Program-made: the position numbers and the translations under genes
Shown here: positions 16,806 through 26,413 of the stretch, one piece after another
Numbering within the stretch: the first letter of the stretch is position 1
Layout of the letters: every line of letters starts with the position of its first letter
Notes under the pieces: generated by a model
What the model was told of the DNA's origin: nothing
Seen by the model: only the letters and a program-made list of their open reading frames with translations
Databases searched by the model: none
Source of the DNA: Naegleria gruberi
Lineage: Eukaryota
Assembly (NCBI GenBank): GCA_000004985.1
Contig: GG738867.1
Length of the DNA stretch: 64,000 nucleotides
Reading direction: 5' to 3' (one strand)

Positions 16806-19151
16806 ATGTCGCAAACAATTACTTGTTTAGATTTAGTAGAAGAAACTCTAAAGGTTAATTTGGATCATTTTCTTCGGAATGGTCAAGTTGAAGAGTGTTT
16901 TGAAAGATCTAGATATGATCAGTTTTTATCATTCCTCGATAAGAATATTTTCAATCAAGTTTGTCAAGCTAATAGTAGTCATCTATTCATTTCAAAGGCT
17001 GGATTATATGCAATTTATAATACTTTATTTGTTTTAAATAAGAGTGAAGAGTCATCACCTATTCTATGTATGAAAAGATGTATGATTATTACATTGGGAA
17101 TGTTTTATAGAAATGAAGGATTATTCAATGAACATTATTGGACATTGCCGACCAATGAAAAGATTGAAAATAATTTATTTAAGAATTACATGATTGAAAT
17201 GTTGAGAATTAATGAATCTTCTATGGATTTTACAATGAATTTAGATGATGTTGATTTTTTGAAAACTTCAATATTCAATTCTCTTTGTACATTCCTTGAT
17301 TGCCACAACAGTTCAATGAATTGGTTCACGAATGAGATTGATTGCTTTGAGACGATTTTTAAACATAATATTAAGAGTGAAAATATATATTTAAGACAGG
17401 CATGTATACAGTGTTTACTATTAGTTTCGCAGTATTGGTATCAGAATGGAAAGGGGGATTTTCTAATCAGAAAGATTTTAGATTTATTGGAACCTTTTAA
17501 GAAGGAAAATATTTTAGAATATTTGGAATTTATTCTTCAATTAGTAACTCTGAGTTTTAATGACCATAATAATACATTTGATTTTACAATGATGAGGCCT
17601 TTGAGTACAACCATTCTTCAAGAGGTTCTGCTACAAACAAAACTGATTGAAATTTTGATTCAGGATGATTCTATTTCTGAGACACATGATTTGAGAGTTG
17701 TAGAAAGGCTATACGACATTTTAATTTACCTTTCTAATCACTCAAGTGTTGAGAATTCAAATTCATTGCTAAAGTTATCAGGTCCATGTGATTCTATTGG
17801 ACATACAATTGAAATTATTCAACTATGCCTTTTATCAAATGATAATGGATTCCAAGAAATTGGTATCAAAATTATTTCCAACTTTTCCAAAGAAATTTTA
17901 TTTATTAAGCTTGCAGACAAGATTATTCCACTCATGTCAATACTAATCAATATGTGGAAATCTCTAATTAATCCAGAAACAAACTCTTTCACCAACTTTA
18001 CCTTTATGAGCATGAAACAAAAGGGAAAATTTATTTTAGGCATAACCAAATGTCTCACTAGATTCATTAATGATAAATCCATCTCAAATCTATTTGAAAA
18101 AATGGCTCTACAGAATACCATTATTGAAACTGCTAGATTGTACGATCACATTAATAATCCCCTTTGCTCTAAAGTATTTGAGTTACTGTATAGTTGGTCC
18201 TACCACTCAAATATTCAACTTGATACTGAGCATTCTAATTATTTATGGTTTCTTTTTCACAACACACTGGTACCAAAGACATTCACCGTAGTTAGCAAGA
18301 TTATTCCACTTGTATGTTTGGATGAAGAGCAAACATTTGCCATTGTATCTGATAGATGTTTGGATATGAATTGGGAAATACGTGATTCAGTAATTGATTT
18401 TTTAAGATTTATATTTATTGAGAGCAATAATCATCCTTCATTCTTAAAGATTGCAAATTATTGTTGTGAAAAGCAATCAGATCTCCTTAAATTAATTGAC
18501 CAAAAGCTTGTTGACAAGGAACACTTTGTTGTACTCATGACCTTCAAAGCTCTCTATTCAATGATACTATTTATGGTTAATTCAAAGAAATCACCAATGA
18601 CTATTCAATTTTTAATCAAAATATTTGAGACAGCCAACCAGAACACAGAATATTTCATTAAGAAGGAAGCTATTGAGATTTGCAAAAACTTGATTGTCAA
18701 AAAGGTAATAACACTGACTGACATTTTAGAAAATCCAACTATGGTGAAGTGTATATCAACTGTTGTTGAGTTTTCATCAATGGAATGTGATGTTGAGGTA
18801 GCCAACCAATTTTTACAGTTATCGAATGTTATCATTAATTTACAAGATCAACCTATTGCACAAGTTCTACAATTTCTGATAGAAATTAACTCTACACCAG
18901 TCATTAAGGAATATTTCGAAAATACCATGGTTGAAAGTAACAATAATCTATCCATTTCAATAATTGCGAACATTTCAAGACAATTATCAAATCTTCCACT
19001 TTCATCTCCTCTTCTTAACCATTCATTCTGTGAGTTCATTCAATCTTGCCATACTTCCCTCCATCATCACGATAATCACCACGAACATGTTTCTCTAGTT
19101 CAGGATTTCTTTAATTTTGACAATGATGATTATGATTGTCAGTGTTGTTAA
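16806..19151 (+). CDS. hypothetical protein, 781 aa, single exon, helical/ARM-like, His-rich Cys-ending C-terminus
   Basis: Uninterrupted ORF. C-terminus reads HHHDNHHEHV...DYDCQCC. No family assigned. Confidence 0.55.
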   Translation: MSQTITCLDLVEETLKVNLDHFLRNGQVEECFERSRYDQFLSFLDKNIFNQVCQANSSHLFISKAGLYAIYNTLFVLNKSEESSPILCMKRCMIITLGMFYRNEGLFNEHYWTLPTNEKIENNLFKNYMIEMLRINESSMDFTMNLDDVDFLKTSIFNSLCTFLDCHNSSMNWFTNEIDCFETIFKHNIKSENIYLRQACIQCLLLVSQYWYQNGKGDFLIRKILDLLEPFKKENILEYLEFILQLVTLSFNDHNNTFDFTMMRPLSTTILQEVLLQTKLIEILIQDDSISETHDLRVVERLYDILIYLSNHSSVENSNSLLKLSGPCDSIGHTIEIIQLCLLSNDNGFQEIGIKIISNFSKEILFIKLADKIIPLMSILINMWKSLINPETNSFTNFTFMSMKQKGKFILGITKCLTRFINDKSISNLFEKMALQNTIIETARLYDHINNPLCSKVFELLYSWSYHSNIQLDTEHSNYLWFLFHNTLVPKTFTVVSKIIPLVCLDEEQTFAIVSDRCLDMNWEIRDSVIDFLRFIFIESNNHPSFLKIANYCCEKQSDLLKLIDQKLVDKEHFVVLMTFKALYSMILFMVNSKKSPMTIQFLIKIFETANQNTEYFIKKEAIEICKNLIVKKVITLTDILENPTMVKCISTVVEFSSMECDVEVANQFLQLSNVIINLQDQPIAQVLQFLIEINSTPVIKEYFENTMVESNNNLSISIIANISRQLSNLPLSSPLLNHSFCEFIQSCHTSLHHHDNHHEHVSLVQDFFNFDNDDYDCQCC

Positions 19152-21672: not shown

Positions 21673-23082
21673 ATGGAAAAACGTAAACGAGCCAATGAAG
21701 ATCCAATGATAGCTAATGATGATGAAGAAACAACACTTAGAGTAAATGACCAACTTTGTCCCCATCAATTAGCCTATGAAGAGTTGGAAACCTATAGAAT
21801 GACTAAATTGGTTCAATTCAACAAGGAGAAGGAAGATCATCTCACAAGAAAGAAAGAGTTGGAGATTTTAGCTGATTTTTTAAAGCCTTCCACTGATAAA
21901 GAAGTGGAAACTTTATCAGATCCAACATTGGAGGAAATTATAAACTCACAAGATGCAGAGAATTTAATTAAATTGAATGTTGGAGGGAAGATCTTTACTA
22001 CCACACGTTCCACAATTATGAAGAGAGATAACATGTTAAAAGTAATGTTAAATTCAGAGTTTAAAATTGATACAGATGATAATGGTAATATATTGTTTGC
22101 TGATCGAAACCCTGATTACTTTCAGTTAATTTTAGAGCATTTGAGAACTGGTAAGTTTCTAATAATTTCCGAGATTACTAATTCTTTTAAAGGTTCCACA
22201 ACACATATTGGTATTTGGGAGGGAAACAAATATTTGACTAAACTGAGACATCTTTTAGATGAATCTGAGTTTTTTGGTACAGCAAAATTGAGTGATTCTA
22301 TTCGTATCATGATTGGCGAAAAGACTGAGGATAGTCAAGAAGAGAAAACAGAAGATTCCACTATGGTTGATAGTGGTGTAGTTGATATTCCTCCAAACAA
22401 CAAAATGTTTGATGATCAAGAAAAGCAAGATGAAGATTGGATACAAGAATTCTCCAAGCTTACTATTCAACAAAAGCAAAATTTAGATAATTACTTTATT
22501 GAAACTGAAAAACAATTACAAAAGGAGAAGGAAGAAATTATTGAGAAGGAAAAGGCTCTGAAAATGTTTGATGTGACATTTAATGTTAGAGGAGTTCTAT
22601 TCAAAGTCAATATTGAAAAGATTTTGAAACATAGCAATTCTCTCTTTATTCCAATGGTAAAAAAGATTGCATTATCTGGTGAGAAGGTCATCTTTATAGA
22701 TAGAGATCCAACTGTATTCTCAGTATTTTTCCATTATATTGAAACTGGAAATGCAAACATTCCACCTGAAGATTTTAAAAAGAAACAATTGTATAAGGAA
22801 GCTAAATTATTCAAATTGGATTCGTTTTTAGAATATTTTAATCCAATCCGTTTTCCTATGGAGTTGTATGGTAAAGAGAATTTAGAAATTAAGAAAGAGG
22901 AGGATATTTTGAGAGGAATGTTTGCAACTGATAGAGAGAACCCTGTTTTAAATGATCCTTATTTATTGTTACTTAACGTTTTTGGAAAGGATGGTAATTT
23001 AAGAAATTCTTTCAAGATTAAGGAAGAAGTTCCAAAAGATATTGGTCTAATTTTTGACTTTGAAAATCCAGTAGGTTTTTAA
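21673..23082 (+). CDS. protein with two KCTD-type BTB/POZ (T1-like) domains, 469 aa
   Basis: Two copies of the BTB/T1 pattern: IKLNVGGKIFTTTRSTIMKRDNMLKVMLNSEF and FDVTFNVRGVLFKVNIEKILKHSNSLFIPMV...DRDPTVFSVFFHYIETG. Acidic K/E-rich linker. Confidence 0.65.
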   Translation: MEKRKRANEDPMIANDDEETTLRVNDQLCPHQLAYEELETYRMTKLVQFNKEKEDHLTRKKELEILADFLKPSTDKEVETLSDPTLEEIINSQDAENLIKLNVGGKIFTTTRSTIMKRDNMLKVMLNSEFKIDTDDNGNILFADRNPDYFQLILEHLRTGKFLIISEITNSFKGSTTHIGIWEGNKYLTKLRHLLDESEFFGTAKLSDSIRIMIGEKTEDSQEEKTEDSTMVDSGVVDIPPNNKMFDDQEKQDEDWIQEFSKLTIQQKQNLDNYFIETEKQLQKEKEEIIEKEKALKMFDVTFNVRGVLFKVNIEKILKHSNSLFIPMVKKIALSGEKVIFIDRDPTVFSVFFHYIETGNANIPPEDFKKKQLYKEAKLFKLDSFLEYFNPIRFPMELYGKENLEIKKEEDILRGMFATDRENPVLNDPYLLLLNVFGKDGNLRNSFKIKEEVPKDIGLIFDFENPVGF

Positions 23083-23115
23083 TTTTATATTCGATTGTGG
23101 TTAACTCTATAAAAG

Positions 23116-24986
23116 GTGGAGAAATCTGACTTGTGTACACCAAAAAATCGGCTTCAACCACCAAAAGTTCCAGAGTTATGTGAAACAAAGGAGGAATTTT
23201 ATACTCAATTTAATGCTTTTACTTATGGAATGTTTAGGAACATGGATTGGGCCAATGTATTCATTGCAGGTAGGTTTTTAAATTTATTCCAATGTGGTTA
23301 ACTGTTATTAGGTGGATCTGTGTTGGCAACTCTCTTGAAGGTTTCACATTATCTAGCTGGATCTGTAACTAAAAAGAATGATTCTAAACAGAAAATCATT
23401 TCTTGGGATATTGATGATGGAGATCAAATTTTGGAAAAAGAGGAAGATGTGGTGATGAACAGCGATAATGAATATTTTTCTGACACAGATAGTGATGCTA
23501 GTACCATTGAATATGATGGTTATCAGCCTTACTATTCTCAAAGAGAAAAAAACTCTAAGAAAACATCTTTGGTTGATGAAAGATTAGCCAAATATTTTAC
23601 AGGGGCATCTATGTGGAAAGATTCTGATATTGATATATTCTTGTATGATCTTACACCAGAACAAGCAGAACAAAAAATTGAATATCTCTATAACCTCTTC
23701 AAGAAAAACCTGAAAGATCTTTCTCCAAACAAATATTGTGATATCAAATCAGTGTCCATTGAGGAAAAAGGAAGTTATAGAGCATGGCGTCCTACCAGAG
23801 AATATTTGGAAAGTGGTCCAGTTCATAAATATGATGATCCTGAAGATATTATGATCATTAGAACAGAACATGCAATAACCTTTCGTATGAATCATCCAAT
23901 TCGTTCTATTCAAATCATTTTGCGTTTATACAAAAGCCCTGCTGAGATACTTATAGGATTTGATTTGGCATCTTGTTCTATTGGCTTTGATGGTCATGAA
24001 GTTTATTGCTTGCCAAGAACTAGAAAGGCCTTATTGACTCGGTGTAATCTAGTCGATCCAGATAGACAATCATTGTCCTACGAAACAAGATTAGTCAAGT
24101 ATGCTCTGAGAGGTAAGTAATGAAATTAAGAAATTAATGCTATTTCATGTAGGATTTCGTATTGGTGTCGCAGGCTATAATCCCAGTAAAATAGCTAGAC
24201 ACTCACTTGTTAGTAGTGTATTTTCTTTCCCCAGAAGTAATATTAAATCTGTCAGTGGTTTAGCCAGAATTCTATTAATTAGATCTGCTTATAAATACTG
24301 TGATGACCACACTAGAATTTTCACAAGAATTAGAGGAACAGGAAGTGATTTGAAAAAGACTGAGAAAGAAATTTCAAATCCACCAAGAGATCATGATTAT
24401 GCACAAGTTGATTTCTCTTCACAATTTTTTGGATTACATATCTTTAACAGAAAAATTGAAAAAAAGATTAATTATTTACAAGAGCAGAAAATATTGAAAA
24501 AGAAACCATTTTTTGAATTTGCTTTGAATGATATCCAGAAAATTATCAAACCAACACCAGACCAACAAATCTCATCTCTTCCATCACGTATTGAATGGAT
24601 AACAATTGAACCAGGAAGGCAATCTATCGGATCATTCCATCCCTCTGACAAGTAAGTTTCCAATACATTTCCCTTGATATTAACACTAACTCAGAAACTT
24701 CTTAGAAGATGCATACACAGATATTTCCTCACCTCTAACGAAAAAGAAGATTAAAATCAATTGGTATTGGTATACGAATGGAATGAAGCAACAACTATTC
24801 GATAAAGAAATGATCATTGAAATTGAAAAACAATACAGAAATCGGTCAACCCTTTCTGGAAAAGAATGTGAAATTGGCTTTTTCAAATTCAATTTTAATA
24901 ACATGAGTGTGGAACACAATGGACAATGGTATGATATTGACAGAGTTAAACAACCATACAATTACAAATATTTTACCAAGAAATAG
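23116..24986 (+). CDS. multi-exon gene: candidate nucleotidyltransferase-fold N-terminal region and C-terminal WWE domain
   Basis: Exon 1 is 23116-23270 (donor FIAG|gtaggt). Exon 2 is 23328-24113 (GGSVLATLLKV...), exon 3 is 24152-24653, and the WWE exon is about 24700-24986. GGS is followed, after a roughly 100-aa acidic insert, by WKDSDIDIFLYD, resembling the Pol-beta-like NTase hG[GS]...DhD signature. The WWE part INWYWYTNGMKQQLFDKEMIIEIEKQYRN...FFKFNFNNMSVEHNGQWYDIDRV follows the RNF146/Deltex WWE pattern W.W.dd.G.W.pY.......iE.AY......Y.vdF..M.Q.N..T...R.v.R. The phase of the junction between exon 3 (donor AA|gtaagt) and the WWE exon could not be resolved by eye. Confidence 0.5.
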
Positions 24987-25106
24987 TCCACCCTGTTAAC
25001 AAATTGTCCTCGTAAAATTCTGATCAGGTTGAACTCCAATATATTATTCCACACCAATCATCAATAAATCATCAAAATTAATATCATTGGATCACTTACA
25101 AAAAAA

Positions 25107-26413
25107 ATGGCTCAAAACATCAGTGACGAAGATTTTATCGAGAGAACAAGATCTAATATCGGAAAGAGAGGATTCTTTTATTTTATCCCAACCATTTCCA
25201 TTCTCCTCTACATGATCATTCCAATTGTTGCCTTGAGTAGTTTTGTTGGATTTTTAGCAGTTAATTTTAAAACAGAAAAAGAAAGAATTGATTATTTGCA
25301 ACATTTTGGTAATAGTGCATATAATTTAACTAGTTCCTACTCTGGAAAGGTGATCAATATGGTAAATTCTGACAAGTTGTCTGCTGAACAAAGTGTTGAA
25401 ATGGTTCATGCTAAATTACGTTCATTCTTTACTTTTACTGAATTGAATTATGCCATTATTGTAACATCAATGATTGGATTGGTTATTTATATGAGAGTTG
25501 TTGTAATGACAAAGCTTATTGTTTTTACATGGTTGAGAAGATTGATTTTTGGAGCTATTCCTGATGATTTCATGTTGGTTGACTTTTGTAAGTTTTAAAA
25601 TTTGTTTCTAATTCTTAAAATTGAAAAGTGACTTTGAAAAAGGAAAGAACCATTGAAAATATCAAAGGTTTAATTGATCAATTATTTGAAATTACCAAAC
25701 TTAACATTCAAGATATTGATACCATTATTGTTGATACCACAAATAAGGATAAGGTAATTGATGACTTGATGGTTCATTTGGATGAAAGTAAGAAGAATAT
25801 CAAAATGGTTTCACTTTGTGGAATGAATATTTCCTCATTCAATTTAGTTAAGGATACTCTTCCAAAGAAGTCAAGAGCTTTGATTGTTACAAATAATGGA
25901 AATAAGGATACAACTGTTGTTGTGGTTTCTAATAATCCAAAAGATGTTAAAATCTCCAAGTACATTCTAGGTAAGTGAATGTTTTGAATTCTAGTGTTTA
26001 ATTCTCTTTCTTCAGTTAAATCTGAAACAGTTGTTGCCAGTGAAAATTCAGAATCTGATATTGCTTCAGCATGGAATAATTCTAAATGTGCTCATCTTTG
26101 TTTGGGTATTACTGAAGAAAAGTTGAATACTGTAAAGAAAGGTATGTGAAATTTACTTAGTATTAATTTCAAATGAATCTTTTAAAGAACTTGAAGAATC
26201 AACCTTGGAACCAACTTTGAAATCTTTCCATCACTTTGGAGCAAACACTACTTCCTTTAATGGTAAGTTATTTTTTACAATAATCACATTTACTCTTTAA
26301 TAACCAGCATTGGAATTTATTGAAAATAAGCGTAAAGGAAAGAGGAATGATTTGATTCTACAAATGAATTGTGGAACCAATTCAATTACTAAAATTGTTT
26401 GGAAAGTTATATA
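25107..26413 (+). CDS. hypothetical membrane protein, 5 exons
   Basis: Exons are about 25107-25598, 25628-25976, 26017-26147, 26189-26263 and 26308-26413. All junctions are GTAAGT/GTATGT...AG. Two N-terminal TM helices. No family recognised. Confidence 0.5.

Follow-up and report, generated by a model that had tools for sequence, protein, structure and literature searches.

A five-exon Naegleria gruberi gene predicted to join two BTB domains, a Gad2-like nucleotidyltransferase-fold domain and a divergent WWE domain

The window analyzed here is a stretch of 64,000 nucleotides (nt) of Naegleria gruberi DNA (contig GG738867.1), in which positions 23116-24986 of the plus strand had initially been annotated as a candidate nucleotidyltransferase (NTase)-fold protein ending in a WWE domain. 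Comparative analysis indicates that this segment holds exons 2 to 5 of a five-exon gene located at 21673-24986 (+). The spliced coding sequence spans 3,144 nt and 1,047 codons, with no internal stops. Its predicted product carries two N-terminal BTB domains, a central domain of the Gad2 family (PF26128) and a divergent WWE domain at the C terminus. Judged from sequence comparison, the gene model and this domain architecture are very probably right as given, and the assignment of the central domain to the NTase fold and to the Gad2 family is made with similarly high confidence. The reading as a whole, in which the product of this gene acts as the transferase proposed below, is reasonably probable.

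Position 23116 had been taken as the beginning of the gene. Instead, it is preceded by the AG of a 45-nt intron (intron 1, 23071-23115 (+), GTAGGT...AAAAG), which joins it in phase 0 to a 466-codon open reading frame (ORF) with its ATG at 21673. This first exon (21673-23070 (+), codons 1-466) encodes both BTB_2 domains and the N-terminal extension of the Gad2-like domain. Exon 2 (23116-23269 (+)) and exon 3 (23312-24112 (+)), which encodes the NTase core, are separated by a 42-nt GT..AG intron of phase 1 (intron 2, 23270-23311 (+)); this splice, yielding ...NMDWANVFIAG/GSVLATLL..., had been recognized correctly. The donor following ...VKYALR had been read as phase 2, whereas the GTAAGT at 24113 is a phase 1 donor and opens a 40-nt intron (intron 3, 24113-24152 (+), GTAAGT...TAG). 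It is followed by exon 4 (24153-24651 (+), 499 nt), detectable as a 172-codon ORF at 24137-24655 and collinear with the orthologues, which encodes the helical C-terminal half of the Gad2-like domain. Intron 4 (24652-24694 (+), 43 nt, GTAAGT...CTAACTCAG, phase 2) contains a CTAAC branch-like site and a cAG acceptor at 24692-24694, after which the frame resumes exactly as AA/A AAC TTC (K-N-F). Exon 5 (24695-24986 (+)) includes the TAG stop codon at 24984-24986. The three exons of the initial annotation therefore correspond to the second, third and fifth exons of the gene, the BTB exon and exon 4 having been overlooked. The latter omission explains the junction that could not be reconciled at the time. 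A hidden micro-exon or two separate genes had been suggested; these, and three separate genes, are rejected, as the junctions are in frame and the product is collinear with single proteins.

All four introns are of the GT..AG type, and the reading frame is restored at each junction. Three of the junctions rebuild family-invariant motifs, namely AG/GSVL (as part of AGGSVL) at intron 2, KYALR/G/FRIGV at intron 3 and GSFHPSDK/NFLEDAY, kept in all paralogues, at intron 4. The intron 1 junction unites two parts of one conserved domain: the N-terminal extension EEDILRGMFATDRENPVLNDPYL is encoded in exon 1, continues into exon 2, and directly precedes the core in relatives without BTB domains. Moreover, alignments over the length of the 1,047-amino-acid (aa) product show collinearity with Acrasis kona AKO1_001970 (E = 5e-108 for query residues 66-1006) and with Naegleria lovaniensis C9374_002782 (E = 4e-124 and 5e-65). 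Exon 1 is itself collinear with both proteins, with C9374_002782 from residue 3 onward. This comparative support for the predicted gene model is strong. The N. gruberi locus appears to be without a matching gene model in public protein sets, the single N. gruberi match across three homologue searches being the 29%-identical paralogue NAEGRDRAFT_82124.

A separate observation concerns the introns themselves. Introns 1 and 2 are 80% identical (36 of 45 positions), compared with 53-62% for the other intron pairs. Both start with GTAGGTTTTTAA and contain TGTGGTTAAC, with no further exact copies of either in the window. This likeness may reflect intron duplication or an introner-like gain.

The Gad2-family domain comprises about 560 aa (residues ~393-958; 22849-24716 (+), exons 1-5) and runs from RFPMELYG...EEDILRGMFATDRENP to PGRQSIGSFHPSDKNFLEDAY in the family alignments A1, A2 and A5. 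Two successive searches for homologues yielded 62 and 131 proteins, of which nearly all carry PF26128 as precomputed annotation. The same label (PF26128:Gad2) is given in the gene table to P0098, an ORF call on an environmental contig that is 99% identical to exon 3. The founding members of PF26128 are ORF_159 of phage SPbetaL7 and a Brevibacillus laterosporus prophage homologue. Gad2, the Gabija anti-defence protein 2 of SPbetaL7, is a 400-aa protein with an AlphaFold-predicted NTase domain (bioRxiv 10.1101/2023.05.01.538930). When a profile of 25 eukaryotic core sequences (A4) was compared by hhalign to the experimentally verified B. laterosporus Gad2 (sequence from Supplementary Table 10 of the same preprint), the two matched with 93.5% probability (E = 2.4e-7, 140 columns). 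The window core alone matches the B. laterosporus protein in pairwise BLASTP at E = 1e-4. In addition, compact members of the family match phrog_1614, labelled "nucleotidyltransferase" (E = 5.7e-7), and phrog_4400.

Across alignments of 19 to 127 homologues, AGG, D-x-D-x-F, Q..R.Y, E.L.GFD and R..KY form invariant or near-invariant columns, and the motifs are not a chance pattern. The window protein retains every family-invariant residue, and each of the 12 heterolobosean paralogues that were compared keeps the active-site-type motifs. The hG[GS]...DxD signature on which the initial annotation relied lies within these columns, as FIAGGS (residues 515-520) and SDIDIF (residues 622-627). Its first half, the A-G-G-S motif (residues 517-520; 23266-23319 (+), interrupted by intron 2), corresponds to the hG[GS] turn between strand 1 and helix 2 and has near-invariant columns and a strand-turn-helix conformation in the orthologue model. 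The second half, D-I-D-I-F (residues 623-627; 23626-23640 (+)), is a putative metal-binding DxD strand, with invariant D, D and F columns and a beta strand in the model. The most conserved block of the domain, IQIILRLYKSPAEILIGFDLAS (residues 717-738; 23908-23973 (+)), is common to phage Gad2, where it reads IQLIHDRMYESPKEIFKAFDFTVC.

The two halves of the signature are separated by an insert of ~91-95 residues (23338-23610 (+)), whose centre is acidic and which is predicted to be poorly ordered from its composition and from the low model confidence of the equivalent orthologue segment. An acidic insert of roughly 100 aa had been described here, and this holds: 95 residues precede MWKDSDIDIFLYD, with D and E making up 21% overall and 36% of the central 42 residues. 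The AGGS-SDxD loop is an insertion hot spot in the family. Its length is ~18 residues in Balamuthia, against 95 for the window protein and more than 150 for homologue P0041, and the compact relatives have 18-35 residues between G[GS] and DxD. In homologue P0062, a C3HC4-like RING finger is located inside this loop.

The motifs AGG[ST], DxD[IV][FY]F, IQ.I..R.Y.SP.EI...FD..C and KY..[RK]G[FY] are common to phage Gad2 and the window protein, the B. laterosporus forms being DxDxYF and KY..KGY. However, phage Gad2 is a stand-alone protein of ~400 aa with ~9 residues from GG to DxD, in contrast to the 1,047 aa, 95-residue insert, BTB domains and WWE domain of the window protein. Their direct similarity is weak, as judged by the BLASTP score and by empty tblastn searches of phage records, and an anti-Gabija activity would be meaningless in an amoeba.

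To assess the fold, the core of the Acrasis orthologue (residues 333-868) was modelled from a 127-sequence alignment that included the window exon translations. The AlphaFold model has a predicted local distance difference test (pLDDT) score of 78.8 and a predicted template modelling score of 0.81, and the conserved blocks exceed a pLDDT of 90. Its elements are ordered as helix, strand (VVAG), G-S helix, insert, strand (DIDIFF), helix and three strands. This modelled topology is of the Pol-beta NTase type. Among solved structures, the fold comes closest to the head and neck of class II CCA-adding enzymes and of bacterial poly(A) polymerases (CCA/PAP; 3wfo, 3aql, 3h37, 4wby, 1miv, 1ou5 and 9kma), together with TENT5 (TENT5B/FAM46B, 6jyj), with which the domain shares a strand-GG-helix unit followed by a DxD strand. 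Unlike in the class II enzymes, motifs B to E are not mappable on the window family, and tRNA-binding body and tail domains are not evident. A resemblance to the signature of OAS, CD-NTases and TUTases had been noted initially. The hG[GS]...DxD signature of the Pol-beta superfamily is common to OAS, cGAS, CD-NTases and TUTases, but neither these families nor Mab-21 were recovered through a Pfam model or as closest structural neighbours, and OAS, cGAS and CD-NTases do not appear among the matches; the relationship to OAS and CD-NTases was considered and rejected.

The invariance of the GG, DxD, Q, R, E, FD, R and KY columns suggests that the active site has been maintained. On the strength of these conserved positions, we lean narrowly toward a catalytically active Gad2-like domain. 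It would then be a nucleoside triphosphate-using transferase, whose GG/DxD metal site adds a nucleotidyl group to a hydroxyl acceptor. By analogy to the nearest structural relatives, this acceptor would most plausibly be the ribose 3'-OH of RNA or of a nucleotide-like molecule.

The last exon encodes INWYWY...LFDKEMIIEIEKQY...FKFNFNNMSVEHNGQWYDIDRV, in fuller form INWYWYTNGMKQQLFDKEMIIEIEKQY...FKFNFNNMSVEHNGQWYDIDRV, and contains a divergent WWE-fold domain (residues ~970-1038; 24750-24956 (+)). Its AlphaFold model shows a beta-beta-alpha-beta-beta-beta-beta core with pLDDT values of 84-91. When this model was compared to the PDB with Foldseek, the best 22 matches were all WWE domains (probability, 0.97-1.00; target-normalized TM-score, up to 0.73), including those of DTX1, TRIP12, RNF146, PARP11, HUWE1, Deltex, ZAP and PARP14, and the probability collapsed afterwards. 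Profile comparisons agree with the structural match. A profile of nine orthologue and paralogue tails, from which the window was excluded, aligns with the window tail with 96.4% probability (E = 1e-9) over its N-terminal 50 columns, and in the PDB it matches WWE chains only (DTX1, 3e-9; RNF146, 8e-7; then Deltex and TRIP12, down to 1e-4). With the window tail included, the tail profile matches DTX1 at 4e-4. Among the relatives, P0004 (JGI) and P0003 (Acrasis) score 28.9 and 21.2 bits on the Pfam WWE model, and the tails of Naegleria fowleri, N. lovaniensis and Willaertia paralogues (P0168, P0169, P0170 and P0173) reach 39-45 bits. The window tail is thus a WWE domain, a degenerate copy of the canonical WWE domain found at the same position in paralogues. 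The earlier recognition of a WWE domain in the terminal exon stands as far as the fold is concerned, as established by the model, Foldseek and the tail profile, but this copy does not match the Pfam model. The coupling of an NTase fold to a WWE domain is likewise borne out, both domains being part of one polypeptide here and in paralogues of four other heterolobosean species.

In comparison to the known WWE domains of RNF146, DTX1/Deltex, TRIP12, HUWE1, PARP11, PARP14 and ZAP, the window copy has the same fold and keeps the strand-1 W, the E..Y helix and the F.F..M strand. Unlike those domains, it falls below the Pfam reporting level, and its partner domain is an NTase where theirs is a RING, HECT or PARP module. 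It lacks the second Trp, with QQLFD instead of W.PYD. Its ligand-binding positions were examined by alignment to RNF146, whose sequence was verified against PDB entry 3V3L; this alignment was anchored on the conserved Met and the predicted strands, since MAFFT misaligned the C-terminal half. Tyr107, Tyr144, Gln153 (adenine-contacting) and Arg163 of RNF146 are its reported ADP-ribose/iso-ADP-ribose contacts in the 3V3L study. Aromatic residues (W and F) are retained in the window tail at the Tyr107 and Tyr144 positions. Canonical paralogues retain both the Gln and the Arg (...YIDF..M.Q......R.R.V.R). N. gruberi has PARPs of the PARP1 type as well as other PARP-like proteins (PMC2964712), which makes poly-ADP-ribose reading plausible for the family. 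For the window gene itself, such reading is doubtful because its tail fails the Pfam WWE model and has a Val at the Gln153 position, and binding of ADP-ribose or poly-ADP-ribose by this copy is accordingly considered rather unlikely. The label "poly-ADP-ribose-binding" attached to it initially is therefore not supported. The WWE tail may target or gate the enzyme through a putative adenine-nucleotide-type ligand or a partner protein; the canonical iso-ADP-ribose contacts are probably partly lost in this paralogue.

The N-terminal part of the protein contains two BTB_2 (T1/KCTD-type) domains. The first (residues 99-163; 21967-22161 (+)) matches PF02214 with 52.2 bits (E = 8e-14) when scanned alone, and the second (residues 301-385; 22573-22827 (+)) with 39.8 bits (E = 5.9e-10; profile positions 1-89 of 94). 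Both exceed the gathering score of 21.4 bits when scanned singly, and the whole protein scores 77 bits (E = 1.4e-21) in two stretches. KCTD-type BTB_2 domains, like WWE domains, are typical of ubiquitin-ligase adaptors. By analogy to KCTD proteins, the BTB pair would mediate oligomerization, and it may also provide a docking site for a cullin-3 ligase.

A search with the full-length product returned proteins of 1,049-1,222 aa that are annotated as single genes and have their domains in the same order. They come from N. lovaniensis (four further proteins), N. fowleri (two proteins) and Willaertia magna; a JGI sequence and N. gruberi NAEGRDRAFT_82124 were also recovered. The paralogues comprise N. 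fowleri FDP41_000356 and FDP41_009927, W. magna ABK040_005242, A. kona AKO1_001970, NAEGRDRAFT_82124, and N. lovaniensis C9374_002102, C9374_007475, C9374_007776, C9374_007401 and C9374_002782. They are annotated only as hypothetical, BTB-domain or WWE-domain proteins. These heterolobosean proteins share the order BTB x2 - Gad2-like - (WWE), a similar length and 28-46% identity over ~950 aligned residues with the window product. The N. lovaniensis, N. fowleri and W. magna proteins with BTB_2 and Gad2 domains, some of which have a WWE domain, are 39-46% identical to it (MAFFT). Several paralogues differ in having a canonical WWE domain (39-45 bits), in contrast to the degenerate tails of the window copy and its nearest relatives. 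One of them, C9374_002782, the N. lovaniensis model closest to the window product, passes directly from ...CAGGV to VGFDGTQ..., so that ~214 residues equivalent to window residues 522-735 are absent, including the DxD and IQIILRLY blocks. This gap is either a mispredicted intron or a real loss of the catalytic core.

Beyond the Heterolobosea, an exhaustive search with a family profile retrieved 9,647 cluster representatives at E ≤ 1e-3, of which 2,947 reach E ≤ 1e-30. Many of the top matches are fungal and amoebal "ankyrin" proteins of ~1,800 aa with an N-terminal Gad2-like domain. Other fusions involve TPR, SAM, kinase, F-box and WD40 modules, or a RING finger placed within the GS-DxD loop. 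Among viral models, Foldseek found 61 matches at E ≤ 1e-3, of which the named ones belong nearly all to giant viruses of protists, and many of these are fused to BTB, ankyrin, F-box, VWA or RING modules. Giant-virus proteins (Fadolivirus A0A7D3QUG1, Pithovirus LCPAC102 A0A481Z661 and Bodo saltans virus A0A2H4UVY7), the Pholiota and Trametes "ankyrin" proteins and Fonticula H696_03796 thus resemble the window protein in fusing a Gad2-like domain to protein-interaction modules. They differ in the partners (ankyrin, F-box, VWA, TPR, kinase, SAM and WD40) and have no WWE domain. P0041, a protein with BTB and Gad2-like domains, is labelled as a metagenome-assembled genome product of a "Patescibacteria group bacterium". 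Given the eukaryotic and giant-virus distribution of the architecture, this is probably a misbinned eukaryotic or giant-virus contig.

Several results weigh against a BTB-Gad2-WWE transferase as proposed. Regarding the gene itself, the four splice junctions rest on comparative support, and neither the 1,047-aa model nor the unspliced 469-aa ORF has an exact match in the protein collection. Regarding the fold, the modelled core is that of the Acrasis orthologue, which is 31% identical over the full length (MAFFT) and 45% identical to window exon 3 over the core. A Pfam scan, initially proposed for the 23116-24120 product and run here on the whole 1,047-aa product with a Pfam copy that lacks PF26128, gave BTB_2 only, with no NTase or WWE match at E ≤ 1, and the companion check of the tail on the Pfam WWE model (PF02825; gathering score, 21.1 bits) gave no match even at E ≤ 10. 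Similarly, a core hidden Markov model retrieved no NTase from the PDB sequences, phmmer of the C-terminal 581 aa against the same sequences gave no useful match, the window core had no PHROG match, and 50,697 phage records contained no tblastn match to exon 3 or to a compact relative. The word-indexed homologue search, when run with the 581-aa C-terminal query, missed the 99%-identical P0098, and it missed all full-length Naegleria paralogues until the 1,047-aa query was used, so its negatives need care.

The comparison with the closest structural relatives points the same way. By hhalign, the A4 profile matched E. coli Cca with 4% probability and a three-sequence CCA/PAP profile with 1%, with only the GG turn aligned. 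Because these comparisons are not significant, the relation holds at the level of fold only, and the acceptor substrate is not inferable from it. The protein was consequently kept apart from the class II CCA/PAP family, for which sequence and profile evidence were not found. Two likenesses noticed by eye, SPAEILxGFDxxC to class II motif B (EDLKRRDFTxNA) and YExRLxKYxxRGF to class II motif D (EDxxRxxRxxRF), were unsupported by hhalign and were not used.

At the level of individual residues, the candidates for the third catalytic carboxylate are the invariant E of SPAEIL (E728) and the invariant D of GFD (D735). The window protein reads GFDLAS, with Ala at the second Asp of the common GFDxD, and the 95-residue insert lies between G[GS] and DxD. 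Phage Gad2 is also without that second Asp, which indicates that the residue is not essential to the family. In the WWE tail, the RNF146 Gln153 position is occupied by Val1022 (NMSVE) and there is no clear equivalent of Arg163, an assignment of moderate confidence. Finally, phage Gad2 is among the proteins whose mechanism is described as unresolved in a review of February 2026 (PMC12904381).

The main rival to an active transferase is a noncatalytic scaffold, which we regard as unlikely. In that case, the protein would be a cullin-3 ubiquitin-ligase adaptor, in which the BTB domains bind Cul3, the Gad2-like domain is a pseudo-enzyme binding nucleotide, RNA or protein, and the WWE domain helps to recognize modified targets, as in RNF146, DTX, HUWE1 and TRIP12. 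The pairing of BTB_2 with WWE is consistent with such an adaptor, as are the PDB matches of the WWE domain, all of them E3 ligases or PARPs, and the fusion of relatives to F-box, inserted RING, ankyrin, TPR and SAM modules. Furthermore, the enzyme activity of Gad2 family members is itself a prediction, and the GFDLAS sequence and the long insert within the catalytic loop region fit a pseudo-enzyme. However, the GG, DxD, Q, R, E, FD, R and KY residues are invariant in distant members and kept in every heterolobosean paralogue, and the missing Asp is shared with phage Gad2. Adaptor and enzyme roles are also not mutually exclusive.

Less probable still is that the gene belongs to a virus-host conflict module. 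The family would then be exchanged between giant viruses and their amoebal hosts. Instead of a housekeeping part in the metabolism of RNA or ADP-ribose, it would have a role in antiviral defence or its regulation, as the eukaryotic counterpart of what Gad2 does in phage anti-defence; a catalytic and a scaffold mechanism would both fit such a role. This reading is suggested by the phage anti-Gabija protein as founding member, by the 61 viral matches, by lineage-specific expansion (N. lovaniensis has at least five paralogues, Gymnopilus and Tilletia have many), by the highly variable domain fusions and by the hot spot for insertions in the GS-DxD loop. On the other hand, the four spliceosomal introns, the host-like G+C content and the orthologues across Heterolobosea mark it as a resident cellular gene. 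Separate BTB, NTase and WWE-like genes, or a coincidental WWE pattern, are hardly credible: the window tail does fail the Pfam WWE model and ORF callers on metagenome contigs do split the locus into separate ORFs, but the junctions are in frame and rebuild conserved motifs, the product is collinear across all of them with annotated single proteins in five other species, the Gad2-domain extension sits in the BTB exon, and the WWE fold and homology were established independently by structure and profile.

Some observations concern the surroundings of the gene. The product of a neighbouring ORF at 16806-19148 is exactly the sequence of N. gruberi XP_002677291.1. On the plus strand, the next ORF (25107-25598 and onward; MAQNISDEDF...) starts 120 nt past the stop codon and is hydrophobic, probably with transmembrane segments. 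A metagenome contig (ENA ERZ929261, run ERR1078381) is 99.4% identical to window positions 23147-26154 over 3,008 nt, indicating that the environmental sample contained an organism very closely related to the N. gruberi strain that was sequenced.

The component families of the BTB-Gad2-WWE protein are already known, and automatic annotation flags the same domains in sister species. The combined architecture was not found in the literature searched (PF26128, eukaryotic Gad2-like proteins and Naegleria WWE). The apparent absence of an N. gruberi model and the C9374_002782 model without its core imply that the annotations of both species need correction. As a long shot, BTB-Gad2-WWE proteins might be nucleotide- or ADP-ribose-gated, cullin-3-tethered NTases that mark ribose hydroxyls of RNA ends or of ADP-ribose/poly-ADP-ribose chains in virus-host conflict. 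If true, they would be a eukaryotic and giant-virus counterpart of phage Gad2, linking nucleotidylation, ADP-ribosylation and ubiquitination in one polypeptide. The occurrence of both canonical and degenerate WWE tails among the paralogues provides a natural experiment on the control of the enzyme by nucleotide or ADP-ribose. More broadly, the predicted Gad2 NTase domain reaches beyond phages, with named family members from fungi, amoebae and giant viruses, in which it is repeatedly fused to protein-interaction and ubiquitin-ligase-type modules. These eukaryotic proteins offer additional access to the group transferred by Gad2-type enzymes and to its acceptor.

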